Part shown: positions 4,219-45,737 of the stretch, in pieces
Layout of the letters: each line of letters opens with the position of its first letter
Numbering within the stretch: the first letter of the stretch is position 1
From: a virus
DNA length: 64,000 nucleotides
Strand: one strand, 5' to 3'
Virus record (IMG/VR): IMGVR_UViG_3300045988_159775
The notes under the pieces: generated by a model
The model's input: only the letters and a program-made list of their open reading frames with translations
Databases searched by the model: none
Told to the model about the DNA's origin: nothing
Position numbers and translations under genes: made by a program

Positions 4219-5307
4219 TTACTTCATTCCCGTGTGACCAAAACCTCCGTCACCGCGTTCCGTCACATCGTCAAACTCATTTACTAATTCAAAATCCGCC
4301 TTAACAACGTTTTCAACAAATACAAATTGAGCAATTCTCTCTCCTTTCTCAAAGAATACCTTTTCACTACCATGATTTATCAAAATTACGTTACATTCCC
4401 CACGATAGTCAGCATCAATCGTACCCGGTGCGTTAAGGCAAGTAATACCTTTCTTCAAAGCCAAACCGCTACGAGGACGACACTGTACTTCAACGTTCTC
4501 CGGCAGTTGCATGTAAAGTCCTGTATGAATCATGCGCCGTTCTCCCGGTTCTAATGAAAAATCCTCAGCAGCCTTTATATCCGCTCCAGAACTCTGACTT
4601 GTAGCGTAAACGGGCAATTCTCCACCCTCCTTAACAATGATTTTAATCTTAACCGTTTTACGGGATTCATGAAAGTTTTCAACGAAAATTTGATTAAACT
4701 GATCGACTGTAGGACGGTATAACAAATCAGTTAACTTTTCAATATCTCCTCCTAAATCTTTAGCGATATTCTCAGCAAAACTCCGGAATTCGGATTCTGA
4801 TAAATTCCGTTCCCGAATCAATTTCGCCAACTCTTTTACGCCAATAGATTTTTTAACAAAATGTTGTTTGATGAGTTCTCCAGAATTTTCGTCAATCATG
4901 AAAACTGGTATATCGCGTTTGATAGCCATCCGCAATTCCGTCTCCACTCCGCCTTTAATCTCTCCAAGAAATACTGAGATACCGTCATTTTGCTCGATAT
5001 AATCAAACATATGCTCCCGATAAAAATCCAACTCGCCGCTTTTCTCCAATCCCGGATTCCAGCCGTTTTGTTCCATTTCGATATGATCGTAAAGATCGTG
5101 GAACGCTTCGTGAATAGAATTATCAAAATCATTTTCAATAACTTCTTCCTCCGACAAGAAACAATGATGTAACTCAATTGTCGTATCCTCTGAGAGATCG
5201 TCAATGTATTTTTTTAAGGCGGTTTCAAATTCTCCTACTAACTTCTTTACATCTTGATCTTTTGGGGTAAAATGTAAACTTACTACTAATTTTTTCTTCT
5301 TTTCCAT
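4219..5307 (-). CDS. dut: dUTPase fused to an N-terminal ~225-aa extra domain
   Basis: The C-terminal part carries dUTPase motifs RPRSGLA, GTIDADYRGE, RIAQ and ERGDGGFGHTG. The N-terminal part is unrelated, and FLGEIKGGVETELRMAIKRDIPVFMID is reminiscent of deoxyribosyltransferase-like folds. Confidence 0.85.
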   Translation of the reverse strand: MEKKKKLVVSLHFTPKDQDVKKLVGEFETALKKYIDDLSEDTTIELHHCFLSEEEVIENDFDNSIHEAFHDLYDHIEMEQNGWNPGLEKSGELDFYREHMFDYIEQNDGISVFLGEIKGGVETELRMAIKRDIPVFMIDENSGELIKQHFVKKSIGVKELAKLIRERNLSESEFRSFAENIAKDLGGDIEKLTDLLYRPTVDQFNQIFVENFHESRKTVKIKIIVKEGGELPVYATSQSSGADIKAAEDFSLEPGERRMIHTGLYMQLPENVEVQCRPRSGLALKKGITCLNAPGTIDADYRGECNVILINHGSEKVFFEKGERIAQFVFVENVVKADFELVNEFDDVTERGDGGFGHTGMK

Positions 5308-13186: not shown

Positions 13187-14605
13187 TTACTTTTTGAGAA
13201 TTTGACGGTAAATTTCCTTTGATATAGCTTTTATTACTGGGATAGCTACGCTGTTACCGAATTGCTTGTAAGATTCGGTATTTGAAACCGCTATTTTAAA
13301 CTCCATATTGTCCTTATACCTATCTTTTGACTTCTTATTCATCCAGCCGTTTCCCTCTATGAAATATCCTTGTAACCGTCCGGCTTCTACTGGAGTTAAC
13401 TTCCTTGGGTTCTTTCCTTTGTCGGCTTGATAAATTAGTATTTCGTTCGCATCTTTATAGTATCTTGCTAAGAGAGTTGAACAATATTCACTATCTCTAT
13501 CCCAAAGTGAATATCCAAAGCCATTGCCTTTCTTTTCATTCCTTTTCTTTCTTCTTTGATAACCACGTAGAGCAACGTCACTAATAGAGTAATGATCAGT
13601 TGTTGATTCTGGCTCGAATATATCCGAAAGTTTTGTTTTGATTTTTTCTTCTTGTACCTTTTGAGGATCATAAATATGCGTTCCATTCGGTTTTAATCCG
13701 TAAGGGAAATTAAAATCTTTGATATGTATTGTTTTATTATACCAAGCTATTATAAACAAACGCTCACGATTTTGAGGAACACCAAAATTTTTAGCATTCA
13801 AAACTTCATATCTATAAGAATATCCCAATTCAGAAAGAGTCTCCAATATAACTCTCAAAGTCTCTCCTTTCTCGTGATTCTTTAATCCTTTTACGTTTTC
13901 TAAGAAAAGAACCCTTGGCGCCTTGGCGTTTTGTACCTTTTCCTTAACTATACTGGCTATATTGAAAAACAACGTACCCCTTGTATCCTCAAATCCCTTT
14001 CTTTTTCCAGCAATAGAAAAAGGTTGACAAGGGAATCCTGCACAAAGTATATCGAAGTCCGGTATTTCTGAAAGTTTCTGTTTTGTTATATCGGAATTGA
14101 ATAACTTGTAATCATTCTCAAATAAGTTTGGAGAAATATCTTTGTAATTATGTTCATAGGTTATTCGGGCGTTCTTATCAATTTCACTCGCAAATACGCA
14201 TTTAGCTCCAAGAGAATGCAGAGACTGATGAAAACCTCCTATTCCCGCAAACAAATCTATGAAAGTTACACGTTCAGAATTGCGTGACTCGTAAGCATTG
14301 ATCTTTTCATTAGAATAAATCCCTACCTTAGAACTATGAAAGTCACTTCCATTGTGGTTTACGGCATTGCTACAGTAACGTTTCGTCAGTCTATCTCTCG
14401 CGTTTACTAACTTCTCCCGTTTACGTATCGCGTACTGAACTTGACCGGGTATAGTTCCGTCTACCCAAAGGGCGTCTTTCAGTATTCTTTCTCGTTCTTT
14501 GGGAGGCATATTCATTGCCCTTGATACGAGATTGAGAAAGCGTTCCTCTTTTGTTATAGCCCAAGATATTTTCTTTATAACTCTTTGTGCAGTTTCTACG
14601 TTCAT
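13187..14605 (-). CDS. dcm: DNA (cytosine-5) methyltransferase with ~110-aa N-terminal extension
   Basis: Motif I FIDLFAGIGGF, motif IV GFPCQPFSIAGKRKG, motif VI ENVKGL, motif VIII QNRERLFIIA and motif X GNSVAIPV are present. No restriction endonuclease partner was recognised nearby. Confidence 0.9.
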   Translation of the reverse strand: MNVETAQRVIKKISWAITKEERFLNLVSRAMNMPPKERERILKDALWVDGTIPGQVQYAIRKREKLVNARDRLTKRYCSNAVNHNGSDFHSSKVGIYSNEKINAYESRNSERVTFIDLFAGIGGFHQSLHSLGAKCVFASEIDKNARITYEHNYKDISPNLFENDYKLFNSDITKQKLSEIPDFDILCAGFPCQPFSIAGKRKGFEDTRGTLFFNIASIVKEKVQNAKAPRVLFLENVKGLKNHEKGETLRVILETLSELGYSYRYEVLNAKNFGVPQNRERLFIIAWYNKTIHIKDFNFPYGLKPNGTHIYDPQKVQEEKIKTKLSDIFEPESTTDHYSISDVALRGYQRRKKRNEKKGNGFGYSLWDRDSEYCSTLLARYYKDANEILIYQADKGKNPRKLTPVEAGRLQGYFIEGNGWMNKKSKDRYKDNMEFKIAVSNTESYKQFGNSVAIPVIKAISKEIYRQILKK

Positions 14606-15490: not shown

Positions 15491-15540
15491 AATTTTTCTG
15501 TATTCTATTAGTTTTACAATTTGTTTTTCGATTATGAGTA

Positions 15541-15571
15541 CAAAGGTAAGGGTTTTGAGAATATCTACAAA
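15541..15571 (-). promoter_or_regulatory. Bacteroidota-type promoter (cassette copy 2)
   Basis: Minus strand reads TTTG (15568-15571), a 19-nt spacer, then TACCTTTG (15541-15548); near-identical to copies 1 and 3. Confidence 0.6.
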
Positions 15572-15644: not shown

Positions 15645-17078
15645 TTAAATCGCTTCTATATCAGACTTCCATTCTGGAGTTTCAAGTAAATCCTTTAATT
15701 CCCGTCCGGTTATAACGGGATATGGATAAACTCTTTCTTGTTCTCCCTCTGAAACGGTACGATAGATCGGAGGATACCAGCGATCATATTCTTCAAGATG
15801 TACTACGGCTTCCGTCTGCGCTACGTTTGTAATACGAATTGACCAATTATCATCCTTTGAATAAAGTTCGTCCATAGGAATGACAATATATTTTTGATAA
15901 TCTGATAAATTATCGCTTGGCGTATATTCCGCAACGTCATCTGAGGTTAACGTCCTAACGGATTTTGAACCGGGGAATTGCTTTGCTATTTCCTCGTCCA
16001 TCTCTTCTTGAGTCATTACTCCTTTATAAAGGACTACTTTGTAGAATGCACAAGTAGTAGGCGCTGCACCGCTTTGTCCGCCCTCTTGATCGAAAAGATA
16101 AAAACCGTTCAAGTGTAAGAAATTGAACTTATAATCTTCCAATCCACTATTTGTAATGCTATAAACTAATTCAGCATCTGGTAGTACTACTTTTGGATCA
16201 GCGGTTCTTGTGGAATACAAATAACTATAACCTCTTACTCCCCTTACATAAATCGTATCTGGAAGAGGTGTAGCATATCTGAATAACCTCGCATACGTTT
16301 GTATATCTGCGCTCTCTCTAAAGAATGAACAAAGAAACGTAACAGAGACATTATTGTTATAAATAGGATGATAATCAGCCAATATTGTAAAATCTTCTCC
16401 AACTCCTATCGTATCGGCAAGGGAGATAGAAACGCGATCATCATAGCCGTCAAATACCAATGCTCCCTCGTAATTAGCAGGAAGTAACTTAATAGTTATT
16501 GGAACGTTTTCTTGTCCCTCTGCTAATTTAGCAAAAAATATGCCTATGGACAAACTTGTCTCACTTTCTTCAAAAATATGTTCATCGCTATAAGGATAAG
16601 ATTGTATTCCATTAGTCTCTGTCCTTGTAGTATAACGGTTGGCTGATCCGTCTCTCCATGAATATGTCGTTAAAACAGTACCCTCAATGAGTCCGCTCAC
16701 TTCAAAATTAAAACCAAGAACTTCTTTAGTTACTCTTTGAGTAGTACCACTGGGATTAATAGCTAATATCCAAGTAGATTCCGTTGGATTATTTACAGTA
16801 CGCGTTAAATTAGTATCAATAACTTCCAAAGAGGAAGTTGTATACGTCCATTCGCTTATGGAAGTCGAATACATCCCATATCCACTCGAACCAGCAAAAG
16901 CGAAATTTCTCAAATTAAGAATATGACCTTTCTCTCCAACCATTTGTTCTGGATTAGGGCTATCATTATTCTTAGTAGAAAAATCCCAAGCATCAAACAA
17001 CTTATACGTTTTACCCCCGCCACCGGAAGCGCGGTATGCAGGGGTAATATTTCCTAATTTTCCAAAACGTCCTAACAT
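15645..17078 (-). CDS. LamG/concanavalin-like domain protein (possible virion or host-binding protein)
   Basis: YEGALVFDGYDDRVSISLADTIGVGEDFTILADY matches the Laminin_G_3-type pattern (L.FDG.dd.v.....l....dfTi). Confidence 0.4.
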   Translation of the reverse strand: MLGRFGKLGNITPAYRASGGGGKTYKLFDAWDFSTKNNDSPNPEQMVGEKGHILNLRNFAFAGSSGYGMYSTSISEWTYTTSSLEVIDTNLTRTVNNPTESTWILAINPSGTTQRVTKEVLGFNFEVSGLIEGTVLTTYSWRDGSANRYTTRTETNGIQSYPYSDEHIFEESETSLSIGIFFAKLAEGQENVPITIKLLPANYEGALVFDGYDDRVSISLADTIGVGEDFTILADYHPIYNNNVSVTFLCSFFRESADIQTYARLFRYATPLPDTIYVRGVRGYSYLYSTRTADPKVVLPDAELVYSITNSGLEDYKFNFLHLNGFYLFDQEGGQSGAAPTTCAFYKVVLYKGVMTQEEMDEEIAKQFPGSKSVRTLTSDDVAEYTPSDNLSDYQKYIVIPMDELYSKDDNWSIRITNVAQTEAVVHLEEYDRWYPPIYRTVSEGEQERVYPYPVITGRELKDLLETPEWKSDIEAI

Positions 17079-20906: not shown

Positions 20907-20975
20907 ATTCTTAACAAGAAATTTTTGTTTTTACCAAAGAATTTAACTTTTGTTTATAAATATTGGGCAAATCAA

Positions 20976-21697: not shown

Positions 21698-22199
21698 TTA
21701 ATCGGTTAAAACTTTTGTTAATTTCTTTCTGGCGTGAAAGATACGACTTTTCAGCGTACCCATTTCTATCCCCATAATATTTGCTATTTCATCATACCTA
21801 TATCCGCAAATCAAATAGTTGATTGGTACGCGGTATATTTCCGGTAGAGCAGCAATAGCACTTCGAACGTCCAGCGATCGCGAATAATCATCCGTGTCTT
21901 CTGTTAAGAGGTCTAAACGCTCAAACATGCTTCTTTCTTCCTCATCCACGTTATCTCTCAAAAAAACTTTTGTTGCTGTATCTCTTATGAAGATTTATAA
22001 AAGAGTTCTTCAAAATCGTATATCCCCAAGCCTTGAGATTCGTTCCGTCTTCAAATTTATCCTTGTTAGAAAGCATACGGAGTATAACGTCACTTGCGAG
22101 GTCACGTGCCATCTCTACGTCTCCGGATAGAAGAACCTTAGCGCGAAGTAATAACGGCTCATACAAGGCAGATATTCGATCATCCAACGTGTCTTTCAT
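21698..22199 (-). CDS. ECF-type sigma-70 factor split into two frames at a T7 run
   Basis: 21951..22199 carries region-2-like sequence (DLASDVILRMLSNKDKFEDGTNLKAWGYTILKNSFINLHKR). 21698..21961 carries the region-4 HTH (LPEIYRVPINYLICGYRYDEIANIMGIEMGTLKSRIFHARKKL). The frames switch at AGTTTTTTTGAG (A-run 21960-21966 on plus). Confidence 0.6.
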
Positions 22200-26108: not shown

Positions 26109-26244
26109 ACTTTTACCCAAATATTTTATGGAAAACCAAGGAATTTAACTTTTGTTAAAAGAAAAGGACTACTTTCCCAAGCAATCCTTAGCATAAAGTG
26201 ATAATCTAACTTATAGAAAATTACAACAAACAATATAAACTATG

Positions 26245-34506: not shown

Positions 34507-35820
34507 CTATTTGCCTAAGCGTTTACGGAGATCAGCCATTGACATTTTTGCGCGCGGTTTTTCCTCCTCTTCATCATCTTCTTCCTCGTCACTATCTTCA
34601 TCTCCATCCTCTTTCAAGGCTTCGCGAATAGCTTCGCGCAAATCATCATCGGACATTGATTTTTTGACTGAAACGTCTAAATCATTATCTCGTATATATT
34701 TCTTCAATTCGTTACGATCTAAGTCATCCAAACCATCATCCTCGTCACTATCCGCTTCTGATTCTTCCTCCTCGTCTTCGTCATCCTCTGGTTCAGGCTC
34801 AGGTTTTTTCTTTCCGGATTTAGAAGTTTTCTTTGGAGCAGGTTTTTCTTCCTCCTCTTCATCGTCCTCATCTTCTTCCGGTTCTACGACTTTTTTGGAA
34901 GTCTTTTTTGAAGAAACTTTCTTTTTAGGTTCGTCCTCATCATCCTCGTCTGAAGAATCAGCGTCATATTGCTCTTTTATTTCTTCTACGATCTCCAACC
35001 AACCCTCGTCTTCAAACATTTCCAAATCATTTTCCTCATCGAAAGTTTGCAATCCCTCTAAAGCACGTTCAAAATCTCTCATTTCGTAACGAGGAGTAAG
35101 TTCTGAAAGGGGCTTCAAGTTCATGAAATATTCTATCTCTTCATCTGTCAAAGGACGGGCGGAAACTTTTTTAGGGAAAGATACTTCATAATAGTTTTCA
35201 CCTTTCTTTTTGTTTGGTTTTGAGAGTTTCTTTACCAATACAGGTAGTCCCTCATCCGGATCAGTAAACGGATCAACTTCAATTGGATCATCATCCTCTT
35301 CTGAGAAAGAAAGTTTATTCAAAGCGTCACGAACCATTTTCTTGAATTCCCAAACTTTTGCTTTCAATTCTTCGTCTGGATTGATCTCATCAGCATAGGC
35401 TAACCAAGTGAACTGAGCTCCGAATCCGTCTTGTCCAGTGAAGCAAGATAAGCGGTCAGAATCCTTTGACCATTTCTTCTTAGCGTACTTCATGAATTCA
35501 TCGCATATATCTTTTTTCGTTCCTCCGTGAACCACTGAGTCATTAACCGTACCGCGATAAGTATTGCCGTCTTGTCCTGTAAAAGTCAACCAATAACACT
35601 TACGCTTAACGTAAAAATTATCTTCGCCGGGATGAGCAGGGAAAATACGAATCTTAGTTGTTTTTCCATCTTCCAAACGCAAATACTCGTTAGAATTTTG
35701 AACACCGATCATTTCGTTGTCTTCATCTACTGTTTTTTTAAGACTCTTAATGGGAGTTGGCTTAAGTTTTGATCTAAGATCAGATGCTCCCTCACTTTTT
35801 GAAGTTTTTTTAGTTGCCAT
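34507..35820 (-). CDS. candidate ssDNA-binding protein with long polyampholyte tail and HeH/Rho_N-like motif
   Basis: Sits next to the recombinase and has an acidic C-terminal region typical of SSB tails. The tail carries KKVVEPEEDEDDEEEEEKPAPKK and LDRNELKKYIRDNDLDVSVKKSMSDDDLREAIREAL. The SSB call is positional and compositional only. Confidence 0.35.
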   Translation of the reverse strand: MATKKTSKSEGASDLRSKLKPTPIKSLKKTVDEDNEMIGVQNSNEYLRLEDGKTTKIRIFPAHPGEDNFYVKRKCYWLTFTGQDGNTYRGTVNDSVVHGGTKKDICDEFMKYAKKKWSKDSDRLSCFTGQDGFGAQFTWLAYADEINPDEELKAKVWEFKKMVRDALNKLSFSEEDDDPIEVDPFTDPDEGLPVLVKKLSKPNKKKGENYYEVSFPKKVSARPLTDEEIEYFMNLKPLSELTPRYEMRDFERALEGLQTFDEENDLEMFEDEGWLEIVEEIKEQYDADSSDEDDEDEPKKKVSSKKTSKKVVEPEEDEDDEEEEEKPAPKKTSKSGKKKPEPEPEDDEDEEEESEADSDEDDGLDDLDRNELKKYIRDNDLDVSVKKSMSDDDLREAIREALKEDGDEDSDEEEDDEEEEKPRAKMSMADLRKRLGK

Positions 35821-36364: not shown

Positions 36365-36706
36365 TTATTCTTCATCATCGTTTGAAACAGACTTTCTGTA
36401 AACCTTTGGCTCATTTTCTTCCTTTTGAGCGTCTAAGATATGAATGCCTATTACGGCATATCCTATTATGTCATGTAAAGTATCGCGAATGCTTTCAAAG
36501 TTAGGTTCTTTGCCCTGCATACTGTTTTCTACCATATTCCGGTATCTACGTACCTTATCCCAAAGATGAACCATATTGCCGTTCAATCCTAAATCAAAAG
36601 AAGCGCCTTTATAGTCAGCGTTCTTTTTTACCAGCAAATCGCTCATGCCATTGAAAATGCCATTGATACTCTCTTTGGTCATCTCTTTTCCTTGTTCCTT
36701 ATTCAT
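36365..36706 (-). CDS. DUF1599-like protein (nucleotide-modification-associated family)
   Basis: LLVKKNADYKGASFDLGLNGNMVHLWDKVRRYRNM fits the KN.DYG...G......DK..R pattern of DUF1599. Confidence 0.5.
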   Translation of the reverse strand: MNKEQGKEMTKESINGIFNGMSDLLVKKNADYKGASFDLGLNGNMVHLWDKVRRYRNMVENSMQGKEPNFESIRDTLHDIIGYAVIGIHILDAQKEENEPKVYRKSVSNDDEE

Positions 36707-36717
36707 TTTTAAAAGTT

Positions 36718-37344
36718 TTAAATGTTTTCTAATTCACTGAAATCCATATTCGTATTAGGAAAATGAAGTTTCAAATCTTTTATCAAAATCTCTTTTGCTT
36801 TTAGAATGTTTTCTTTCGCCCTAAATAACAATTCTTCAAAATCGCTATTGCCTAATTTCATTTCACGTTTAATGAACATAATTAAAGCTAACCAATCACA
36901 AACTTTTACGAAATTATTTTCAATAGACGTTGAACTAATTATGTTGTTTATCATCATTTCTGAAGCGAAAGTCATTTGATCAACGACTCCTTTGACTTCC
37001 TCCTTTAATTCTTCACTAACTTTATAACGAACAAAACTATTTAGAGCGCGCCTAATATCGTATCCGTTATACTCATTGTATTTTATTTCATGTGAAAGGT
37101 CTCTCAAGATAAACGACTCATCCCAATCGTGTAGTAAGGCGCGCGTAATTACTTCTAACTTAAATTCATTTACATTCGCATCCTCTGATTGTCCAAATAT
37201 ATCTTCCAATAGGACGCGTGCAAAGATTGCTACTTTGTAGGAATGTTGACTTACGCTTTCTTGTTTAAATACGTCTTTCTCCTGCCACTGTATGATGTTA
37301 TCAAGACGCTGGAGATACTTACCATTAAAAATTTTGCTTAACAT
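36718..37344 (-). CDS. HD-domain phosphohydrolase (YfbR-like 5'-deoxynucleotidase family)
   Basis: ESVSQHSYKVAIFARVL (H) and RALLHDWDESF (HD) give the H...HD...D metal-binding signature. Confidence 0.65.
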   Translation of the reverse strand: MLSKIFNGKYLQRLDNIIQWQEKDVFKQESVSQHSYKVAIFARVLLEDIFGQSEDANVNEFKLEVITRALLHDWDESFILRDLSHEIKYNEYNGYDIRRALNSFVRYKVSEELKEEVKGVVDQMTFASEMMINNIISSTSIENNFVKVCDWLALIMFIKREMKLGNSDFEELLFRAKENILKAKEILIKDLKLHFPNTNMDFSELENI

Positions 37345-37356
37345 AACCTTTTTTAT

Positions 37357-39405
37357 TTACGATACTATATAAATCTTCGTCCTATCATCAGAATAAAGAG
37401 CCCTTTGATTTTTGAACTTATCTTTCTTCACTCTCCCTGAAATAGCAACGACTCTATTTTCGTAATTCTCTATATTTTCCGGTAATCTCTCTACAGCATC
37501 TGGCCAAAGTGTTACGGGAATAATCGTATTATTGCAATCTATATTCAAGCTAACCATAGTGCCGTTTTTAATTTTCCGTTCCACGTAATATATTAACTTG
37601 CCTGCTATGGTTACTTCGCTGCCCTCCTTGACGTTTCCGAATTCGAAGTCATTAACGAATAACTTAGCAACCCTACGATTGGGGATAGCGTCACGAATCA
37701 TGGTTTCATAATCTACTTCTCCGAATCCGGTTAAACGTCTTTGTTCAAATACCCAAAATGAGTTTGTTTCTGACTCTGGAGTTTGATATTGAGGAGGCAT
37801 CTGAGCTTTCTTCCTATCCAAATACCAAGCTAATAGTTTTTTACGCTCACGTGTATTTTTCAAATCCTCTACTACATCAAAAGCACCGCTTATAATCAAG
37901 TTCTGAATTACAGTCTTATTAACTTTGGACGGAACGCGTTCCACAAACTCTTCCAATGAGAAAAACCTCCCATGCGCTTCCCTTTCCCCTATTATTAGAG
38001 GAACAACTTTATCACCAATATTTTTGATCTTTGTTAGGCTAAAGAATATTCTTTGTTCTTTTGGATCGCAAGTAAATCTCGTTTCAGAGAAATTTATATC
38101 CGGGGGACGTACTTCTATCTCAACGCCTGTTTTCTTCAATTCGGCAAGGCGATAAGGTATTTCAGATTCTTTGGCAAATTGTAACGAAGCAGTCCAAAAT
38201 TCCAAGGGATAATTAACTTTCATGTATTGACTCCAATAAGACATGATAGAATACGCTGCCGCGTGACTCTTATTAAAACCGTAACCACTAAAAGCCAATA
38301 ACTTATCCCAAACATTTTTAGCATATTCCTCTGGGTTAGGAATGTCATGCTCTTTTAACAACTTTATGTAGCCCTCCTTGAATTTTTCTCCAAACGAGCC
38401 CAAAGTTTTTACGTCTTTTTTCTTTATCGTAGTTCTAAGTATATCCGATTCTACCTCAGTCAATCCGGCTACCACTACGGCTTTCATAATTTGTTCTTGA
38501 TAAACATAAAGTCCGAACGTTTCACGCGTTATTTCCTCCATGCCAAAATCAAACTTAGGTTTCTTTTTCCCGTTTTTAATTTCAGAAAAATCGTCATGAG
38601 CTCTCAATTCCATTGGCCCCGGACGAAAGAGAGCAGTCATTGCTATGAGTTGAGCTAACGTATCCGGCTTAACTTGACGACAATAGTTCATAAGTCCTTG
38701 CGTACCGAACTGAAATACGTCTTCATTCCATCCTCTACGGAAGAATTTGAACGTTTCTTCATCATCTAAGGGTATTTCATTCCAGTTGATTTTCTTGCCC
38801 GTATTACGCTGAATTAACGTCTCCATATCTTTGAACTTATCCAATTGATTAAGTCCCAAAATATCCTCCTTTAGAAAGCCTGATTTATCAATGTATTTTC
38901 CCTCCCATTCAGAAACAAGTACGCCATCGATCATCTTTATAGGCATCCACTCCCATATATCCGTTTCCCGATCTTTGCCGTCTACGGTATGTTTAGGTAC
39001 AATAACAACGGCTGATGGATGGACGGAAGCCGAACGACACTGCAACAAACTATACTTCGTTAAATGAACTATATCGGGATTATCTTGAACGAACTTGAAT
39101 AAGGCTTTAGATCGACTCGCATATTCAATTAAATCTCCCCAAGTGTATTCTGTTTGATCATCTATGTCTTTTGTTATCTTATTCATAGTATCAAAAGGAA
39201 TGCCCTTAACTTTCCCAAAGTCCTTTAAACAAGACTTCAGTTTCATTCGCCCATACGTTCCGATCGAACAAGTGTAATCATAGCCGTACTTTTGTTTTAT
39301 GTAATCCTTTACCGCATCCCGATATTCTGTTGGAAAATCGACATCTATGTCCGGCATCATGTCGCTACGAAAAATTTTTACTTTTTTTATAGAAATTGCC
39401 TTCAT
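37357..39405 (-). CDS. dnaE: DNA polymerase III alpha (DnaE-type), C-terminal half: palm catalytic motif, fingers, OB fold
   Basis: After a 13-aa head it starts with MMPDIDVDFPTEYRD (the catalytic Asp pair). It also has FRPGPME and SGYGFNKSHAAAYS and a C-terminal OB-like region. Its start ATG overlaps the stop of the endonuclease gene (ATGA, 39402-39405). Confidence 0.9.
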   Translation of the reverse strand: MKAISIKKVKIFRSDMMPDIDVDFPTEYRDAVKDYIKQKYGYDYTCSIGTYGRMKLKSCLKDFGKVKGIPFDTMNKITKDIDDQTEYTWGDLIEYASRSKALFKFVQDNPDIVHLTKYSLLQCRSASVHPSAVVIVPKHTVDGKDRETDIWEWMPIKMIDGVLVSEWEGKYIDKSGFLKEDILGLNQLDKFKDMETLIQRNTGKKINWNEIPLDDEETFKFFRRGWNEDVFQFGTQGLMNYCRQVKPDTLAQLIAMTALFRPGPMELRAHDDFSEIKNGKKKPKFDFGMEEITRETFGLYVYQEQIMKAVVVAGLTEVESDILRTTIKKKDVKTLGSFGEKFKEGYIKLLKEHDIPNPEEYAKNVWDKLLAFSGYGFNKSHAAAYSIMSYWSQYMKVNYPLEFWTASLQFAKESEIPYRLAELKKTGVEIEVRPPDINFSETRFTCDPKEQRIFFSLTKIKNIGDKVVPLIIGEREAHGRFFSLEEFVERVPSKVNKTVIQNLIISGAFDVVEDLKNTRERKKLLAWYLDRKKAQMPPQYQTPESETNSFWVFEQRRLTGFGEVDYETMIRDAIPNRRVAKLFVNDFEFGNVKEGSEVTIAGKLIYYVERKIKNGTMVSLNIDCNNTIIPVTLWPDAVERLPENIENYENRVVAISGRVKKDKFKNQRALYSDDRTKIYIVS

Positions 39406-40196
39406 CTTATTCTCGGTTTCATACCATAAACATAACCATCTGGGAGTGGAGAATTTTTATCAATAACCTTATTCAAAACTCCGTTATTTATTCTAACTTT
39501 GCCGGTCATAGGATTAATACAGCCATTAAGATATTGTTTCTTTTTCTTCTCTGACATTTGTCTCCTTTGTTCTTCATTCCACTTATTACCGTAATTAGGA
39601 TTTAAAACCCCAATGTATCTACCTTTCATAATATCAGATTGTTTCTTTTTTTGTTCCTCGTTCCATTTATTACCGTAATTAGGATTTAAAACCCCAACAT
39701 ATCTACCAGAAAGTGTTTTTGATATTCTTTGTTTATAATCCGTATTATGCAATTTTAAAAATCTCTTTCTTTCTCTTTCTTTCCTTTTATCAGGGTTTTT
39801 AATATTCCATAAAATTGCAGATTCGCTACACTTTTTGCGAACAATTGGATCTTTCATAGGACTACCCGAACCAAATTGATTAGCAGTTCCCCAGAGTACA
39901 TTGCAACCTCCTAACCCATAAGAATAATGAGATTTTTCTTTCTTAATGAAACATTCTTCTAATTTATCAAGAACTCTTTGCGAACAAAAATTTTCATACA
40001 AAATTTCCTTTTTAATCAACTTTTTCCAACAGGTTGGATAATCCTTTCTCAGTCGTTTCAGAAAATCATCCCAAATTCTTCCGCTTCCCCAATAATTATC
40101 TAATGAACCCCAATGCTGTCCTACATAATATGGGTTTCGTCCGTTAAATTTATGCCCTGATAATATAGTGAATTTGTAAATTATTCCCTTTTTCAT
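39402..40196 (-). CDS. GIY-YIG homing endonuclease with tandem NUMOD3-like DNA-binding repeats
   Basis: GIIYKFT...YYVGQ...R...E...GCN forms the GIY-YIG core. GVLNPNYGNKWNEEQ(K/R) is repeated twice, from an 84-nt-period DNA repeat (39577-39623 and 39661-39707). The gene sits exactly between the two dnaE halves. Confidence 0.8.
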   Translation of the reverse strand: MKKGIIYKFTILSGHKFNGRNPYYVGQHWGSLDNYWGSGRIWDDFLKRLRKDYPTCWKKLIKKEILYENFCSQRVLDKLEECFIKKEKSHYSYGLGGCNVLWGTANQFGSGSPMKDPIVRKKCSESAILWNIKNPDKRKERERKRFLKLHNTDYKQRISKTLSGRYVGVLNPNYGNKWNEEQKKKQSDIMKGRYIGVLNPNYGNKWNEEQRRQMSEKKKKQYLNGCINPMTGKVRINNGVLNKVIDKNSPLPDGYVYGMKPRIR

Positions 40197-41872
40197 AACA
40201 TTGACTTTAATTTATCTACGTCAATATCTATATTTGAAAAATCTAAATCTACGTCAATATCTATTTCTTCCCCATTTGTTAAAGGTATTTTTATTTTCTT
40301 TTCGACTGGAATAATAATAACTTCTCCATTCTCCATTTCAATTACAAAATTCTCTGGGGCTTTAACACGCGTCTCGTTCAAAAATCTCTCGAACATAAGA
40401 TCGTACTTCAATGGATCTACGTCTGTAATATGAAGACAATATGCTACTAAACTACCACAAACTGAACCTCTACCCGTTCCGACCATTATGTCATTACTCT
40501 TACACCAATTTATAATATCCCAAAGGATCATAAAGTAGTCTACCAAGTCATTAGGAACAATTACTTTACATTCCGTTTCCAAGCGTTTCATATAAACGTC
40601 AAACTCCTTTTCGGGTAGATCGCCTAAACGCTCAGATACACCCTTTTCCAAAACTTTAAAGAAAAACTCAGTAGCATCCTTAACTTCAAATTTCGGTAGT
40701 TTACGCTCTCCGGACGGAATTTTGAATTCAATTTCTTGAGAAAGACTAACGGCGTTTTCTATACCCTCTGTTATTACTTCAAACAAAGGCTCCACTTCAT
40801 CTAACCAATCTATGTAGGCATTGAATGTATCTCGACAACTTTTGAAATATTGGTCTTTAGCTTCTGGTATTGCTTCGCCTAAAACAGCATTGAGAGTTTT
40901 CTTCAATTCACTCATTTCCCGATCTAAATAATACGAATCATTTATCAAGATCGGACGAACGTATTTTTGATATTTAAGTATGTAAGTATCGAGGTTGGAA
41001 AGGTGTTTTTTGAATAAAGTCTCCGATACGTATTCAACCGTATCAATTTGATAAAAGACTTTTGAAAATTTCTTCTTGTATGTCTTAATTAGTTTCCTAA
41101 CTGTTTCCGGTTCATCTTTCAAATAATTGACTTCTGATTCCTTTGGAATAACGAGTGCTAAACCAGAGCCGTATTTATACAATTCATAATCGGGAATAAA
41201 CCCACGATAAGTTACATTGACGGCTTTATTGATTTGTAAGAGATTCAACCATCCCTCAAAATTCAATACGTATAGTTTAAGTTCAAAGGTTTCTTGGTTG
41301 GTCTTTTCAGCATCATATTCTTTTGCTACTACGACCGTTTCGCCAATAATAGATTTAATCCCTTTTTTATCGCAAAAAGTCTGAAAGGAGAGCGTGCCTG
41401 CTAAAGTATTCTTATCACAAATACCTAATGACTTAATGCCCATAAACGCGGCTTTCCTCACCCAAGTTTCGCACCCTCCGCTTCCATTCAATATTTCATA
41501 CTCTGAGTGAACTCCCAGATGAACGTAATCGGTTATAAATTCCTCGCTCGTTTTACCAAGATATTTGAAATCATTGAATTGAGGCTTAAAGATTACTTCA
41601 TTATAACGGTTCTTGTCTTTTATGATAGCCGAATAATAAAATTTCTTGCCGAACTCAAACAGAATGTATTTAACCTTTTCCTCGTCCAAAAGATCGAATT
41701 CTTCATCTGAAAGAAGAAATGAGAAATCCTCATCAATTATCTTTCCGTCAAAGGGATGTAAGTATAAAAAGTCCCCAACTTCCTCGATAGAAATAATATC
41801 AGAACCCTCCAAAGAAGATTCTGATACTACTAAATTATTTTCCTTTACCCAAAGGCTCAATTCTTCTGTCAT
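40193..41872 (-). CDS. dnaE: DNA polymerase III alpha (DnaE-type), N-terminal half: PHP domain, ends at FERFLNETRV plus a 55-aa tail
   Basis: PHP motif YVHLGVHSEYEILNGSG is present, and the conserved part ends at DLMFERFLNETRV, which in intact DnaE directly precedes SMPDxDxDF. The stop overlaps the endonuclease start (ATGA, 40193-40196). Confidence 0.85.
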   Translation of the reverse strand: MTEELSLWVKENNLVVSESSLEGSDIISIEEVGDFLYLHPFDGKIIDEDFSFLLSDEEFDLLDEEKVKYILFEFGKKFYYSAIIKDKNRYNEVIFKPQFNDFKYLGKTSEEFITDYVHLGVHSEYEILNGSGGCETWVRKAAFMGIKSLGICDKNTLAGTLSFQTFCDKKGIKSIIGETVVVAKEYDAEKTNQETFELKLYVLNFEGWLNLLQINKAVNVTYRGFIPDYELYKYGSGLALVIPKESEVNYLKDEPETVRKLIKTYKKKFSKVFYQIDTVEYVSETLFKKHLSNLDTYILKYQKYVRPILINDSYYLDREMSELKKTLNAVLGEAIPEAKDQYFKSCRDTFNAYIDWLDEVEPLFEVITEGIENAVSLSQEIEFKIPSGERKLPKFEVKDATEFFFKVLEKGVSERLGDLPEKEFDVYMKRLETECKVIVPNDLVDYFMILWDIINWCKSNDIMVGTGRGSVCGSLVAYCLHITDVDPLKYDLMFERFLNETRVKAPENFVIEMENGEVIIIPVEKKIKIPLTNGEEIDIDVDLDFSNIDIDVDKLKSML

Positions 41873-43077
41873 AACTTTCCAAGATAATCATGTTTCATTG
41901 GAATAGTTAACCTTGATGCAAAGAAATTCTTAGCTAATATTGCCATATCCCAATCGTGCGCACCCTCCGCTTCCATGAGCTCTATTTCAGATATAGCCGT
42001 TTTCCTAATAGCATCCTTTTCTTCTACCGACTTGCAAACCTTGTTTTTTTGCTTGTATTTAACGTAAATACTTAATAGCCGATATACGTTATGGAAGAAG
42101 TGAGAAAACTCTTGTAATTGCTTTATTTCATCTTTGTTTACTTCTCCACCTCGTTGATCTTCCAAAAGGTTACGGATAATTAAATCAAAGTAATAGTTTA
42201 TTTCTATGAACTTATTTGTCGGAACGTCATGAGAAAAATTGAAGTCCATAGGTTTTTCCTCCGCTGGAGTAGATTCGTAAAGAGAGTGGCCACCGCCTTG
42301 TTTTTCAAATTCTTCGTCCATTTCATCCGCCGTACCATTCCAATTGTAAATATGAAGACTTTGAGAATTATGAGTTTGAGTCCCCAACTCTATTCCCAAA
42401 CAAGAAGCTATAACTTCAGATAAGAAACTGAATTGGAATACGTTCGTTGGAAGTCCCCAATGCAAGTCGTTACTCCGATTAGCTATTGTAGTTATTAGTT
42501 TTCCGTTTCTAATTTTGAACATAACTAAATCATTGCACGGTATATCACGCGATTTACTCCCTAAATCTAAAACAGGATTCCAAATCGACATAACGACTTG
42601 ACGACTATTAGGATTACCATATAAAATCCTAATAGCTTCCAAAACTTGATCAAAACCTCTTTGAACTGAAACGTTTGAAGAAAATGGATCATCGGAACGA
42701 GAACCCCAATGACGTAAACGAAAACCGTATGGCGCATGAAATACAATTCCATCATCGCTAAAGTCTTTCATACGAGAATTAAAGATATTCAAGAATTCAA
42801 CGTCACTTCTTCCGCTTACTATCCAAATCGCTTCGGCAAGAAGAAAGAATACATTAATATCTCTACCATAACCTCCTGTGCAACGCTTGTAAGGATTCGT
42901 TATAATAGTTTTGACATCCAGTAGTTCTTTTACTTCCCCGTTCCGGCTTTCTTCTAAATCCTTATTGTTAAGAATGTAATTGTTAATAACCGGGTAAATA
43001 ATCCCAAAATTCTCCGCTTTTGCTACACCATAATCTGGTATGAAACAATTAGTTTTAGGTAAAATATTATCTTTCAT
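41869..43077 (-). CDS. divergent thymidylate-synthase-family (ThyA-fold) pyrimidine C5 transferase, 402 aa
   Basis: SRQVVMSIWNP...DIPCNDLVMFKIRNGKLITTIANRSNDLHWGLPTNVFQFSFL...SLHIY aligns with ThyA SRRIIVSAWN...[38 protein letters not shown]...THLY. The catalytic Cys, the Arg-Ser pair and the uracil-specifying Asn are kept; PCH is replaced by PCN and GDTH by QSLH; the protein has extra N- and C-terminal extensions. Confidence 0.7.
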   Translation of the reverse strand: MKDNILPKTNCFIPDYGVAKAENFGIIYPVINNYILNNKDLEESRNGEVKELLDVKTIITNPYKRCTGGYGRDINVFFLLAEAIWIVSGRSDVEFLNIFNSRMKDFSDDGIVFHAPYGFRLRHWGSRSDDPFSSNVSVQRGFDQVLEAIRILYGNPNSRQVVMSIWNPVLDLGSKSRDIPCNDLVMFKIRNGKLITTIANRSNDLHWGLPTNVFQFSFLSEVIASCLGIELGTQTHNSQSLHIYNWNGTADEMDEEFEKQGGGHSLYESTPAEEKPMDFNFSHDVPTNKFIEINYYFDLIIRNLLEDQRGGEVNKDEIKQLQEFSHFFHNVYRLLSIYVKYKQKNKVCKSVEEKDAIRKTAISEIELMEAEGAHDWDMAILAKNFFASRLTIPMKHDYLGKL

Positions 43078-43116: not shown

Positions 43117-43154
43117 AATAAAAAAGAGTCACCGTTTCTCAACGACAACTCTTC
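43117..43154 (-). terminator. Rho-independent terminator candidate
   Basis: Stem AAGAGT / ACTCTT (43124-43129, 43148-43153) with an inner CGTT/AACG pairing, followed on the minus strand by TTTTTATTCTC. Confidence 0.45.
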
Positions 43155-43277: not shown

Positions 43278-44522
43278 TTATTTCTTAACTGTTTTCTTTA
43301 TGACCTTGCTTTTCTTAACAGGCTTTGGCGCTTCTTCCTCTTCTTCATCGTCCTCATCTTCTTCCGGCTCTACGACTTTCTTGGCAACGGGCTTTTTGGC
43401 GGTTTTCTCTTTCTTCAAGTTATCCTCCATTTTCTTGCGGTTGTCACCCAATTTTTTGTCTACCGTCTTAACCATACGTTCCATATCCGGAAGTAATGTT
43501 TCAATGATCTCGATCAATTCTGAGCTTTCTACGCTCTTCAACATTGGAGCACCTGACCAACATTTTTCGAATTCAATTTCGGCTTTTTCCAAAATCTCGT
43601 CCTTACCGTTGAACAACAAAAGATAAACGTTGCACGTCATAACGGCTTTTTTACCCTCGCCTTTTACAAAGCAATTTTCAACCCCAATAATGCTACGATT
43701 AGAATTTTTGCCTTTGTACTTGATAGTAAGACCAGCGGCAATCCATGCGTACAAATATTCACTTTCTGGGAAGTACTTCTTCAGAAAATCGAACGCTGCG
43801 CGATCTTCTTCATTGTTCTTAGGATTTAAACGCGTTCCTTTTTTGGTAGCTGCTTTTTCTGCTGGTTTAGCAGCAGTTTTCTTTGCTTCCTTAACTTCTT
43901 TCTTCGCTACTTCCTTTTTTGCTGTAGCTGCTTTGGAAGCCTTTTTAGGTGCGGGTTTTTCTTCTTCCTCTTCATCATCTTCCTCCTCCGGCTCAAGGAG
44001 AGCATTGATAGCATCGCGAATATCATCGTCAGACCAAGATTTTTTAACTGATATCTCCAAACCTTTTTCCTTGATGTATGCTTTCAATTCCTCACGACTC
44101 ATATCTTCCAAAGAAACGTTTTCATCTTCATCCTCCGGTTCTTCCTCTTCTTCATCGTCCTCATCTTCTTCCGGCTCTACGACTTTCTTGGTCGCTTTCT
44201 TTACCTTTGGCGCTTCTTTCTTAGCAGGCTTTTCGGCTTTCTTCTTTGACGCTTTATCTTCTTCCTCTACTTCCTCCGCCAGTTCGTCTGCTTCGGCTTC
44301 CTCATCAATATCATCGTTTTCATCTTCGTCATCTGACGTTGTGTCATTAACAAAAGTTTCAGCAATTTCCACGATAGTAATCAGTTCCTCATCATCCATC
44401 TGTTCAATTCCGTTCTCTTCAAGGATTTCCAGAAGTTTCGGTTTAACCGCTTCTTCAGTTGAACCTGAAATTCCTAAAGCCTTAACACGCTTTGCTAAAG
44501 CGCCAGTCAATTTTGTTGCCAT
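43278..44522 (-). CDS. polyampholyte protein with HeH/Rho_N-like motif (paralogous modules shared with 34507..35820)
   Basis: The preferred start is MATKLTGALAKR at 44522; the upstream ATG at 44615 lies inside the preceding gene. It carries KKVVEPEEDEDDEEEEE twice, EEEEKPAPKK, and MSREELKAYIKEKGLEISVKKSWSDDDIRDAINAL. Confidence 0.55.
   Translation of the reverse strand: MATKLTGALAKRVKALGISGSTEEAVKPKLLEILEENGIEQMDDEELITIVEIAETFVNDTTSDDEDENDDIDEEAEADELAEEVEEEDKASKKKAEKPAKKEAPKVKKATKKVVEPEEDEDDEEEEEPEDEDENVSLEDMSREELKAYIKEKGLEISVKKSWSDDDIRDAINALLEPEEEDDEEEEEKPAPKKASKAATAKKEVAKKEVKEAKKTAAKPAEKAATKKGTRLNPKNNEEDRAAFDFLKKYFPESEYLYAWIAAGLTIKYKGKNSNRSIIGVENCFVKGEGKKAVMTCNVYLLLFNGKDEILEKAEIEFEKCWSGAPMLKSVESSELIEIIETLLPDMERMVKTVDKKLGDNRKKMEDNLKKEKTAKKPVAKKVVEPEEDEDDEEEEEAPKPVKKSKVIKKTVKK
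43332..43384. repeat. 53-nt exact repeat, copy a (partner 44139-44191)
   Basis: ttcttcctcttcttcatcgtcctcatcttcttccggctctacgactttcttgg is identical at both sites in the same gene. A one-mismatch 38-nt relative lies at about 34857-34895 in the other polyampholyte gene. Confidence 0.9.
44139..44191. repeat. 53-nt exact repeat, copy b (partner 43332-43384)
   Basis: Same 53-mer as 43332-43384; encodes KKVVEPEEDEDDEEEEE on the minus strand. Confidence 0.9.
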
Positions 44523-44550
44523 TGTTTTTACAATTTTAGTTAATAATTTT

Positions 44551-45195
44551 TTATTCGTTCTCTGAATTGTTATATCTTGAGAATACTCTCCTTTTTTGCT
44601 GAAGTTCGTTACCATATTTTCTGATAAGGAATTCTTTTTGCATTTCTATTATATCTGTAACGCCAAAAGGTTCATCCCCACTTGCTATAATTTCACGTTT
44701 CTTTTTCTTTTCCTCAGCATTGTTAAAATAAACTTTGGTAAGAAATGCTATACTATGACCTCGCAAATAAAGAGAAAATACTGAACGTTCCTTGCCGGTT
44801 AATCCCTCCAATAGATCAATATCATTAACAATGAATTTATTTTGCTCATTTGATATTTTACAATCTTCCTCTATACCGAAATCGTAATCTATTTCATCAA
44901 TGCGAATTTTATTATTTTCACGCGTTATGAGTTTCATAAAATCACGCATTTTATTGCTACACGCTGCTTCCAAATAATATCTTATCGGAACGGGTTTTGC
45001 ATATCCCTCTTTCCTGTACTTCGCCCATCTTCTGCCGTAGCTTTTAATGGAAAGGAAGATTTTTATACGGAATTCTTGTACCAAATCCTCGTACTCGAAC
45101 GAGAGTTGTTCGAATGAATAGATACGAGAAGCATATTTTTTTGCTAAATACTCGTATCTATTGTAAATTTTCTCAGATACTTTCATAGTATACAA
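44551..45195 (-). CDS. sigma-70-like transcription factor (divergent)
   Basis: Has a region-2-like YEDLVQEFRIKIFLSIKSYGRRW ... RYYLEAACSNKMRDFMKLI and a region-4-like LTGKERSVFSLYLRGHSIAFLTKVY. Confidence 0.45.
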   Translation of the reverse strand: MYTMKVSEKIYNRYEYLAKKYASRIYSFEQLSFEYEDLVQEFRIKIFLSIKSYGRRWAKYRKEGYAKPVPIRYYLEAACSNKMRDFMKLITRENNKIRIDEIDYDFGIEEDCKISNEQNKFIVNDIDLLEGLTGKERSVFSLYLRGHSIAFLTKVYFNNAEEKKKKREIIASGDEPFGVTDIIEMQKEFLIRKYGNELQQKRRVFSRYNNSENE

Positions 45196-45374: not shown

Positions 45375-45419
45375 GATCTTTTCAAATTAGTTTTACAATT
45401 TGTTTTTCGATTATGAGTA

Positions 45420-45450
45420 CAAAGGTAAGGGTTTTGTAGATACCGACAAA
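45420..45450 (-). promoter_or_regulatory. Bacteroidota-type promoter (cassette copy 3)
   Basis: Minus strand reads TTTG (45447-45450), a 19-nt spacer, then TACCTTTG (45420-45427). Confidence 0.6.
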
Positions 45451-45737
45451 ATTTTTCTTGGTAAATTTTCGTTTTTACCAAAGAATTTAACTTTTGTTAA
45501 AAGAAAAGGACTACTTTCCCAAGCAATCCTTAACATAAAACTAATCATCCTAAATTCTAAAGTAGCAGAATATGATATATTTACATCTTTACAGAAGATG
45601 TAAGCGAACAGATATATGATTCCGATACTTTAGGAAAAGAGCGTCTTGTTTAAAATAGAGCATTTGTTCTGGTAAAACAAATCTTGGTTCTCTTATTGTC
45701 TAACAAAATTAACTCCTCTTAAAATATAAACTTTGTA

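Follow-up and report, generated by a model that had tools for sequence, protein, structure and literature searches.

A gut Bacteroidota phage lineage with a predicted SPO1-type dUMP hydroxymethylase beside its DnaE polymerase

We analyzed a 64,000-nucleotide stretch of viral DNA (IMG/VR record IMGVR_UViG_3300045988_159775; hereafter, the window), whose sequence coincides exactly with the final 64 kb of a 101,774-bp scaffold from a human-gut metagenome, and focused on a protein of the thymidylate synthase (ThyA) fold encoded beside the phage DNA polymerase. An earlier note on this DNA had placed the protein in a possible gene set for the replacement or hypermodification of thymidine. We found that it is not a canonical thymidylate synthase and that, by its sequence, it belongs to the clade of dUMP hydroxymethylases represented by gp29 of phage SPO1. 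As such an enzyme is predicted to make 5-hydroxymethyl-dUMP (5-hmdUMP) and not thymidylate, the DNA of this phage family probably contains a modified thymine, as that of Bacillus phage SPO1 does, 5-hmdUMP being made by the ThyA-fold enzyme and incorporated in place of T.

Results

The gene in question lies, as do all genes of the module region, on the minus strand:

41869-43077, minus strand: ThyA-fold enzyme, predicted dUMP hydroxymethylase of the SPO1 gp29 type, 402 residues (PF00303, 2e-24; PHROG 5131)

We read this protein as an SPO1-type hydroxymethylase because four independent lines agree: its placement by hidden Markov models (HMMs), its sequence similarity, its diagnostic residues, and its position in a tree. 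The best PHROG match was family 5131 (9.8e-73, 246 bits), where residues 19-358 aligned to profile positions 4-320 of 357, the C-terminal extension included. This exceeded by 133 bits the match to PHROG 160 (113 bits, 1.9e-32), the family to which both Escherichia coli ThyA and T4 gp42 were assigned. PHROG 5131 takes the enzymes of SPO1 (gp29, 2.5e-136), SP10 (gp188), ZC01 (M6-like), and Rhodoferax phage P26218 at 1e-128 to 1e-164, and biochemical work has demonstrated the dUMP hydroxymethylase activity of SPO1 gp29 (Wilhelm and Ruger 1992, cited in PMC8989533). Against the eight NCBIfam thymidylate synthase models, whose cut-offs are 108-576 bits, the protein scored at most 79 bits and below the cut-off each time, the best scores being 79.2 against 174.55 (TIGR03283) and 74.8 against 327 (NF002497). 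The best tblastn matches among GenBank phages were to SPO1, SP8, SP10, CP-51, JL, Shanette, and ZC01, with 39-47% identity and E values of ~1e-45, and the solved canonical thymidylate synthases in the PDB matched only at ~1e-20. In a neighbor-joining tree of 11 sequences and 224 columns, the ThyA-like family of the window grouped with the hydroxymethylases (bootstrap 0.79), the core identities being 37-43% to hydroxymethylases, 22% to E. coli ThyA, and 18% to T4 gp42. Set against ThyA, the SPO1-type enzymes, and T4 gp42 by both HMM and tree, the protein fell into PHROG 5131 and not inside canonical ThyA, in keeping with the earlier note. The group of its best phage matches has been named "TS4" and argued to be the hydroxymethylase group without dihydrofolate reductase (DHFR), which a hydroxymethylase, unlike a synthase, does not need (PMC4528723); our Pfam scans, which covered the window and part of the remaining genome of an IMG/VR relative, detected no DHFR.

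For the residue comparison, we used the numbering of E. coli ThyA, having verified the E. coli query sequence against the PDB before mapping. In this numbering, position 177 is Asn in enzymes acting on dUMP and Asp in those acting on dCMP, position 143 is hydrophobic where the product is methylated and Asp or Glu where it is hydroxymethylated, and position 169 is Asn in 5-hydroxy-dCMP synthases (Lee et al. 2026, PMC13326640). The aligned residues of the ThyA-fold protein are N212 (N177), D178 (L143), and D204 (D169); N212 is kept in the four aligned members of the window's family, and T4 gp42 has Asp there. C181, R201, S202, D204, Y117, and E82 align with C146, R166, S167, D169, Y94, and E58, and His207 and Tyr209 are also present. 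W80 is deleted, the W83 position is Phe, and H147, Q165, and C168 are all replaced by Asn. The pattern of diagnostic residues is identical in SPO1 gp29 and SP10 gp188, and the acidic residue at the L143 position and the loss of the folate-shielding segment with W80 are shared by the SPO1, SP10, ZC01, and Rhodoferax enzymes. By sequence, these residues predict a uracil substrate and a hydroxymethyl product, and not a 5-hydroxycytosine synthase.

The motifs quoted in the earlier note (RDIPCN, ANRSND, GLPTNVF, and QSLHIY) all occur in the translation, and the IWDEW segment is indeed absent, its place being taken by NSRMKDFSDDG. The departures from ThyA listed there, PCH to PCN, GDTHLY to xSLHxY, the missing IWDEW, and the C-terminal extension, are real and make up the shared signature of the hydroxymethylase clade; with placement, similarity, residues, and tree in agreement, they are therefore the mark of a known clade and not idiosyncrasies. 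The argument for dUMP over dCMP from the Asn at position 177 is strengthened by the Asp at the L143 position and the retained D169 (PMC13326640). The N-terminal extension, put at ~40 residues, is instead ~25 residues relative to E. coli ThyA.

The protein could alternatively be a divergent ordinary thymidylate synthase that boosts dTMP, the HD, DUF1599, and dUTPase proteins described below then serving general salvage or house-cleaning. Pfam and most database annotators do label it a thymidylate synthase, the catalytic Cys, Arg166, Ser167, Asp169, Asn177, His207, and Tyr209 are all kept, and thymidylate synthases and dUTPases are common in phages. We nevertheless find this highly unlikely in view of the scores below every NCBIfam equivalog cut-off, the 133-bit closeness to the PHROG of the characterized dUMP hydroxymethylases, the deletion of W80, the Asp at the L143 position, which correlates with hydroxymethyl rather than methyl products (PMC13326640), the lack of DHFR in the scans above, and the presence in the genome of HMUDK_hel, a domain known only from phages with 5-hydroxymethyldeoxyuridine (5-hmdU). 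An enzyme acting on dCMP, yielding 5-hydroxymethyl-dCMP as T4 gp42 does or 5-hydroxy-dCMP as RB69 gp48 does, with a glycosyltransferase decorating the modified cytosine, has its precedent in phage ThyA homologues that have such activities and are followed by DNA glycosyltransferases (PMC13326640), and near-identical relatives of this phage encode a GT-B glycosyltransferase. It is most improbable here, as all members of the family have Asn at the N177 position, where all characterized dCMP-directed enzymes have Asp, the protein lacks the D169N change that marks 5-hydroxy-dCMP synthases, T4 gp42 belongs to a different PHROG with 18% core identity, and no dCTPase was evident.

The ThyA-like gene is followed, in the order of transcription, by the polymerase and two small genes and preceded by a gap with a hairpin:

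43278-44615, minus strand: acidic protein, 445 residues, upstream of the ThyA-like gene in transcription order
43123-43154, minus strand: terminator-like hairpin, a 14-pair stem followed by a T run, in the 200-nucleotide gap upstream of the ThyA-like gene
40193-41872, minus strand: N-terminal half of DnaE (PHP and start of palm), 559 residues (PF02811; PF07733 positions 5-102)
39402-40196, minus strand: GIY-YIG/NUMOD3 homing endonuclease, 264 residues (NUMOD3, 4e-06; PHROG 314, homing endonuclease)
37357-39405, minus strand: C-terminal half of DnaE (rest of palm, fingers, HhH, OB), 682 residues (PF07733 positions 99-260; PF17657; PF14579)
36718-37344, minus strand: YfbR-like HD phosphohydrolase, candidate dTMP/dNMP 5'-nucleotidase, 208 residues (PF12917, 59.8 bits against a cut-off of 25.9, 3.6e-16)
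36365-36706, minus strand: DUF1599 or "Nucleotide modification associated domain 1" protein, 113 residues (PF07659, 25.4 bits against a cut-off of 25, 1.8e-05)

Past DUF1599, the order continues with a 172-residue protein, a protein resembling single-stranded DNA-binding protein (SSB), a RecA/UvsX-like protein, SbcD, and SbcC. The ThyA-like gene overlaps the first DnaE half by 4 nucleotides, as do that half and the homing endonuclease gene and the latter and the second DnaE half, and the next four junctions, from the HD and DUF1599 genes onward, are gaps of 11-13 nucleotides. Given these overlaps and short gaps, it is reasonable to regard the ThyA-like, DnaE, HD, and DUF1599 genes as one operon, a block that would be translationally coupled. 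The single operon with the HD and DUF1599 genes that the earlier note had assumed thus holds as far as the overlaps, the short gaps, and the preceding gap with the hairpin can tell. The hairpin is a plausible boundary of the transcription unit but weak evidence for one, because terminator-like sites were not enriched over shuffled sequences; a scan for sigma-70 promoters likewise showed no enrichment over shuffles. The polymerase is present amid the gene set, as the earlier note had it, but not as a single gene: DnaE is split into halves of 559 and 682 residues with the homing endonuclease between them. The relatives L001, L034, and L037 have an intact DnaE of 1196 residues and lack this endonuclease, which is an insertion in dnaE and stands outside the nucleotide pathway. 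Cellulophaga phage phi13:1 also has DnaE in two open reading frames (ORFs; gp038/gp039), split in the same Pfam domain with no endonuclease between the halves. The module is flanked by two acidic proteins (43278-44615 and 34507-35820) that share near-identical segments (EPEEDEDDEEEEE..KPAPKK; L-x-[IV]SVKKS-x-SDDD[IL]R-[ED]AI), the latter showing weak SSB-like PHROG matches. Elsewhere in the window, intergenic repeats of up to ~150 nucleotides, their copies 94-100% identical (45386-45538, 3158-3306, 26135-26196, 15507-15557, and 20919-20954), may serve the phage as promoters or regulatory elements; no copy lies in the gap that precedes the ThyA-like gene.

ThyA-like proteins 99% identical to that of the window occur on many contigs of ~100 kb. 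The order ThyA-like, intact DnaE (1196 residues), and YfbR-like was found in relatives with ThyA-like identity down to 54-58%, most of which also have DUF1599: the block of the first three genes is kept down to 54% identity and DUF1599 was detected down to 58%. DUF1599 directly follows the HD gene in most of the family loci examined and was not detected in one of them (L124). Megablast of the 6.7-kb region against GenBank phages returned no match, and exact-sequence look-up gave no record for the ThyA-like protein or the leftmost protein of the window. The nearest named DnaE proteins are those of Cellulophaga phages phiST/phi13:1 and of Tenacibaculum, Chryseobacterium, and Bacteroides phages, the closest, phiST/phi13:1, at 37% identity. 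The gene content fits the published description of "Gratiaviridae", a candidate family of gut Bacteroides/Parabacteroides phages (Benler et al. 2021, PMC8008677), membership being judged here by gene content. The likeness includes the replication and repair genes (DnaE, DnaG-type primase, SF1 and SF2 helicases, SbcCD, and a RecA-like ATPase), a ferritin-like protein, a glycosyltransferase gene placed between those for portal and capsid, and a DnaE whose nearest match is that of Cellulophaga phiST; a thymidylate synthase homologue and DNA modification are not mentioned for the family in PMC8008677. The ferritin-like protein of the window (3618-4208), immediately upstream of a dUTPase fusion, matches the ferritin-like/DPS genes of that description (PMC8008677). 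In the nearest cultured relatives by DnaE, Chryseobacterium phage MA9V-3 (L004) and Cellulophaga phage phi13:1 (L005), 7-deazaguanine genes (queD/queE/folE) lie near the polymerase, in place of the hydroxymethylase block, and MA9V-3 also encodes a canonical ThyA with a large insertion. DNA-modification cassettes around dnaE seem to be swapped within this lineage.

The HD and DUF1599 genes lie where the earlier note had placed them, and their families, PF12917 and PF07659, were confirmed, DUF1599 scoring just above its cut-off. The HD protein matched PHROG 7076 (5.5e-15) and a PHROG labeled "dATP triphosphohydrolase". Its best PDB match was YfbR; compared with 2paq, its motifs sqHS, lHDwdE, and vcDw match those of YfbR. 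We take its H, HD, E, and D to be the YfbR residues H33, H68/D69, E72, and D137 (metal ligands and catalytic Glu), and its conserved Trp and Asp presumably correspond to the deoxyribose-recognition residues of YfbR. By sequence comparison, its kinship to YfbR is no more than distant. In Rhodoferax phage P26218 and in an environmental locus (L138), the gene immediately after that of the hydroxymethylase is likewise HD/YfbR-like, and the pairing therefore recurs in independent lineages. Since phages with 5-hydroxymethyluracil (hmU) induce dTMPase and dTTPase (PMC8989533), we propose that the HD protein is a dTMP/dNMP nucleotidase that would clear canonical thymidine nucleotides.

The DUF1599 protein matched PHROG 1485 at 1.5e-17, and 586 of its homologues carried a precomputed PF07659 annotation; the family comprises 4129 representative clusters at E ≤ 1e-3. 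Its AlphaFold2 model is a four-helix bundle (predicted local distance difference test score, pLDDT, 82), whose top fold match was the MazG protein 1vmg (probability 0.90, E = 0.5), followed by several dCTPase/MazG proteins, none significant. Alignment of DUF1599 with two phage MazG proteins in hhalign was not significant, and a phmmer search with the protein against PDB sequences found nothing significant. Among the longer relatives, 4 of 40 are fused to nucleoside 2-deoxyribosyltransferase-like domains, the only fused domains that could be recognized, which points to deoxynucleotide metabolism. An all-alpha dUTPase/dCTPase-like protein is the dTTPase/dUTPase of a thymine-hypermodifying Acinetobacter phage (PMC13458397), which we treat as a lead only; DUF1599 may possibly help to deplete thymidine nucleotides. 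HMM and phmmer searches found neither DUF1599 nor an HD protein of the window's type in the loci of SPO1, SP10, ZC01, Rhodoferax phage, Nachito, maane, MA9V-3, and phi13:1, although the Rhodoferax neighbor gene is YfbR-like by Pfam.

A dUTPase fused to an extra region, noted earlier elsewhere in the window, was corroborated:

4219-5307, minus strand: trimeric-type dUTPase fused to an N-terminal region of ~210 residues, 362 residues (PF00692, 8e-28)

The dUTPase domain, at residues ~224-361 of 362, is bona fide (NCBIfam dUTP diphosphatase, 171.6 bits against a cut-off of 103) and a probable supplier of dUMP. The N-terminal ~210 residues had no match in Pfam, PHROG, NCBIfam, or the PDB, and a by-eye likeness to nucleoside 2-deoxyribosyltransferase was backed by no tool.

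The earlier note had rightly called the pathway incomplete within the window, and a further gene associated with hypermodification lies just outside it. We located this gene in L012, a strain 99.9% identical to that of the window:

L012 12282-13430, outside the window, ~260 nucleotides past window position 1: HMUDK_hel protein, 382 residues (PF18723, 1e-46)

HMUDK_hel was present in 6 of 6 long IMG/VR contigs of the family with the ThyA-like gene. The PF18723 protein is not itself a 5-hmdU DNA kinase: PF18723 is only the helical, glycosylase-like domain, and the kinase domain, PF18748, was not found. The two domains are combined in SP10 gp186, which consists of the P-loop kinase domain and HMUDK_hel; Bacillus phage Nachito encodes them in adjacent genes, the second labeled "aGPT-pyrophosphorylase clade 1" by its depositors, and ViI-like phages have HMUDK_hel alone. 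The gut phage protein has homologues in the C-terminal half of SP10 gp186, the Nachito "clade 1" protein, and the ViI-like proteins. Both SP10 and Nachito have such a homologue beside the hydroxymethylase, and so do 14 environmental viral loci unrelated to this family; in these 14, HMUDK_hel lies directly upstream of a ThyA-like hydroxymethylase that is itself next to a PolA, with no kinase within 7 kb. These IMG/VR contigs from unrelated smaller phages (L125-L137 and L146) share a module in the order SAM methyltransferase, HMUDK_hel, 73-residue ORF, ThyA-like hydroxymethylase, 118-residue ORF, and PolA (e.g., L125 4910-10402); L138 differs, with kinase, HMUDK_hel, hydroxymethylase, and HD protein. 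Across distant homologues, HMUDK_hel retains a GPG motif and a Cys-Glu pair that is invariant, and the pair would suit the thiol-at-C6 mechanism that has been put forward for aGPT-Pplases (PMC8989533). A phmmer search with the HMUDK_hel protein against PDB sequences found nothing significant.

For the kinase search, the remaining genome was assembled from an IMG/VR relative. PF18748 had no Pfam match among the minus-strand window ORFs of at least 60 residues outside three tail-fiber genes, nor in 20 ORFs of the relative. Walker A motifs occurred only in DnaB, UvrD, RecA, SbcC, and one unassigned ORF of 477 residues (15645-17078) without a family match, and phmmer with the Nachito and SP10 kinases as queries found nothing. 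The genome as scanned had no match to a clade-2 aGPT-Pplase, the transferase. With both searches null, the family therefore has a hydroxymethylase and a glycosylase-like protein and, as far as these searches reach, lacks the kinase, which was found in all four reference hypermodifying phages (Lee et al. 2018, PMC5889632). The window also encodes a C5-cytosine DNA methyltransferase (13187-14605; PF00145, 2e-87), and the phage probably carries 5-methylcytosine at some motif as well; no TET/JBP dioxygenase was seen.

A second cluster outside the window, in the structural region of an IMG/VR relative between the head-morphogenesis and GH108 lysin genes, includes the glycosyltransferase:

L014 13024-16786, outside the window: radical SAM/SPASM enzyme, 229-residue protein, GIY-YIG endonuclease, and 479-residue GT-B protein

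The 479-residue protein is labeled a glycosyltransferase by JGI and is 74-85% identical across the homologues among the matches listed. Its structural model, of low confidence (pLDDT 55), matched GT-B glycosyltransferases only: PimA (1e-7), MshA, WaaG, and T4 alpha-glucosyltransferase bound to HMU-DNA (1.6e-5). Its target may be DNA, the virion, or the host envelope; Benler et al. favored the envelope for the glycosyltransferase in five kinase-encoding "Gratiaviridae" and reported a HipA-like kinase in some members (PMC8008677). The 229-residue protein bears an APHSDD motif that by eye resembles LmbE/PIG-L deacetylases, a likeness backed by no tool and no family match. Searches of PDB sequences with phmmer found nothing significant for either the 479- or the 229-residue protein. 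In the same relative, outside the window, a head-morphogenesis-like protein of 553 residues (L014 11115-12776) has at its C-terminal end a toxin domain of the papain-fold glutamine deamidase type (PF15644, 2.9e-10).

Two further features of the window stand apart from these genes. The large terminase (5561-8293, 910 residues) contains an intein with a Hint domain and a LAGLIDADG homing endonuclease (PF05203, PF14528, PF05204). At 21698-22199, sigma-70 regions 2 and 4 are found on two adjacent short ORFs (21951-22199 and 21698-21961) overlapping by 11 nucleotides, which are either a split or frameshifted sigma factor of the extracytoplasmic function type or a two-piece one.

Discussion

The observations suggest a pathway in which dUTPase would supply dUMP and the hydroxymethylase would add the one-carbon unit of methylene-tetrahydrofolate to its C5, the exocyclic methylene being resolved by water and not by hydride to give 5-hmdUMP and tetrahydrofolate. 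As the phage encodes no recognizable kinase for it, host kinases would raise 5-hmdUMP to 5-hmdUTP, and DnaE, which must accept 5-hmdUTP, would place it into DNA instead of dTTP while the HD enzyme, possibly with DUF1599, would deplete thymidine nucleotides. Whereas the family placement, the diagnostic residues, the gene order, and its conservation are direct observations, the product of the enzyme, the substrates of the HD and DUF1599 proteins, the use of host kinases, and the final base are what we infer from them. The substrate of HMUDK_hel is probably 5-hmdU that has already entered DNA, and virions may accordingly contain 5-hmdU or a derivative of it.

About one-third of our confidence in the production and incorporation of 5-hmdUMP goes to its later conversion. 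In that case 5-hmdU would be transient, HMUDK_hel and other proteins would convert it after replication, and the virions would contain hypermodified thymine, thymine, or both, as in SP10, PhiW-14, ViI, and M6. We hold this to be a serious possibility, though not the outcome that we expect. HMUDK_hel accompanies the 5-hmdU DNA kinase in SP10, as a fused domain, and in Nachito, as a neighboring gene, and occurs by itself in ViI-like phages, its Cys-Glu pair fits the mechanism proposed for aGPT-Pplases, and all characterized phages with such genes lack 5-hmdU in their virions (PMC8989533). However, the two demonstrated steps are performed by the PF18748 kinase and the clade-2 aGPT-Pplase, neither of which was found by Pfam, Walker A, or phmmer searches, and no experimental activity of the HMUDK_hel/clade-1 domain is reported in the literature searched. 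The routine assembly of this family from short-read metagenomes also speaks, weakly, against bulky modifications that block library preparation. A thymine derivative reached without the 5-hmdU DNA kinase, both in this family and in the kinase-less environmental phages, seems unlikely. HMUDK_hel may act directly on 5-hmdU in DNA, or the GT-B protein may decorate 5-hmdU together with the radical SAM/SPASM enzyme and the 229-residue protein, whose likeness to LmbE was seen only by eye; such a route could yield a glycosylated 5-hmdU similar to base J, which we did not find described in a phage in the literature searched.

Several points count against the incorporation of 5-hmdUMP in place of T as we propose it. 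The product specificity of these enzymes has surprised before, as the 5-hydroxy-dCMP synthases were long read as hydroxymethylases (PMC13326640), and the tree comprises just 11 sequences, with a bootstrap of 0.79. The HD protein scores below the NCBIfam YfbR equivalog cut-off (NF003009, 44.7 against 122), and its substrate is only proposed; where MazG has its acidic metal-binding residues, the alignment shows none in DUF1599, which has GNxxH..D in place of GExxE, and the fold match of DUF1599 is not significant. The HMUDK_hel, GT-B, and radical SAM proteins were read from near-identical relatives and not from the window, and in ~19 kb of the relative's structural region the kinase was sought only through Walker A motifs and phmmer searches with two kinase sequences, without Pfam. 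Finally, the window scans and the Walker A scan recognized no phage dNMP kinase, dCMP deaminase, or dTTPase, and the phage would therefore need host enzymes or proteins as yet unassigned to replace T efficiently.

If 5-hmdUMP is made and incorporated as predicted, widespread human-gut Bacteroidota phages of ~100 kb replicate with 5-hydroxymethyluracil or a derivative instead of thymine. Pyrimidine modification based on ThyA homologues is described in cultured Straboviridae, Herelleviridae, Mesyanzhinovviridae, and Ackermannviridae (PMC13326640) and would extend to a DnaE-using Bacteroidota lineage, with a bearing on restriction evasion and host range in the gut and on sequencing biases and methylation calling in viromes. 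Metagenome surveys baited with the 5-hmdU DNA kinase (as in PMC8989533) would overlook the kinase-less class, and the recurring pairing of HMUDK_hel with a hydroxymethylase offers a concrete way into the uncharacterized clade-1 glycosylase-like enzyme.

Among known systems, the SPO1-type hmU phages (SPO1, SP8, 2C, and phi-e; gp29) resemble this phage in the clade of the enzyme, its active-site signature and C-terminal helical extension, the position of the hydroxymethylase gene beside the phage DNA polymerase gene, the lack of DHFR, and the presence of accompanying pool enzymes, here the dUTPase and the candidate nucleotidase. They differ in host and polymerase, which here are Bacteroidota and a C-family DnaE, and not Bacillus and PolA, and in having a dCMP deaminase and a phage dNMP kinase, which are not recognizable here. 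The candidate nucleotidase of this phage is of the HD/YfbR-like kind, with a role that is only proposed; DUF1599 was not found in the SPO1, SP10, ZC01, and Rhodoferax loci examined; and HMUDK_hel, according to PMC5889632, is confined to hypermodifying phages and missing from SPO1.

The hypermodification systems of SP10, PhiW-14, ViI, M6, PaMx11, and SH-Ab 15599 combine a dUMP hydroxymethylase with the 5-HMUDK kinase and aGPT-Pplase. Our phage shares with them a dUMP hydroxymethylase of the same PHROG and the glycosylase-like HMUDK_hel/"aGPT-Pplase clade 1" protein, but the P-loop kinase PF18748, common to all four reference phages (PMC5889632), was not found, nor were a clade-2 transferase, a pyridoxal phosphate (PLP) enzyme, a flavin adenine dinucleotide (FAD) enzyme, or an acetyltransferase. 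Its pairing of HMUDK_hel and hydroxymethylase without a kinase recurs instead in the 14 unrelated environmental viral loci.

The Z-genome cluster of S-2L/PhiVC8-type phages contains PurZ, the HD-domain DatZ, and the MazG-like MazZ next to a polymerase. The present module is similar in having an enzyme for a noncanonical nucleotide, an HD phosphohydrolase with a small all-alpha protein, and a phage polymerase in the same cluster, but different in the base, the fold of the synthase, and the chemistry. Its HD protein keeps YfbR-like features presumably typical of a monophosphate nucleotidase, in which it would differ from the Z-genome HD protein, and its DUF1599 is not demonstrably a MazG enzyme. 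On its sequence, the system is best filed as a predicted SPO1-type dUMP hydroxymethylase pathway, replacing T by 5-hmdU before replication, in a new and abundant lineage of Bacteroidota phages; the DnaE polymerase, the HD/DUF1599 pair, and HMUDK_hel without the kinase are the features that set it apart from the known systems.

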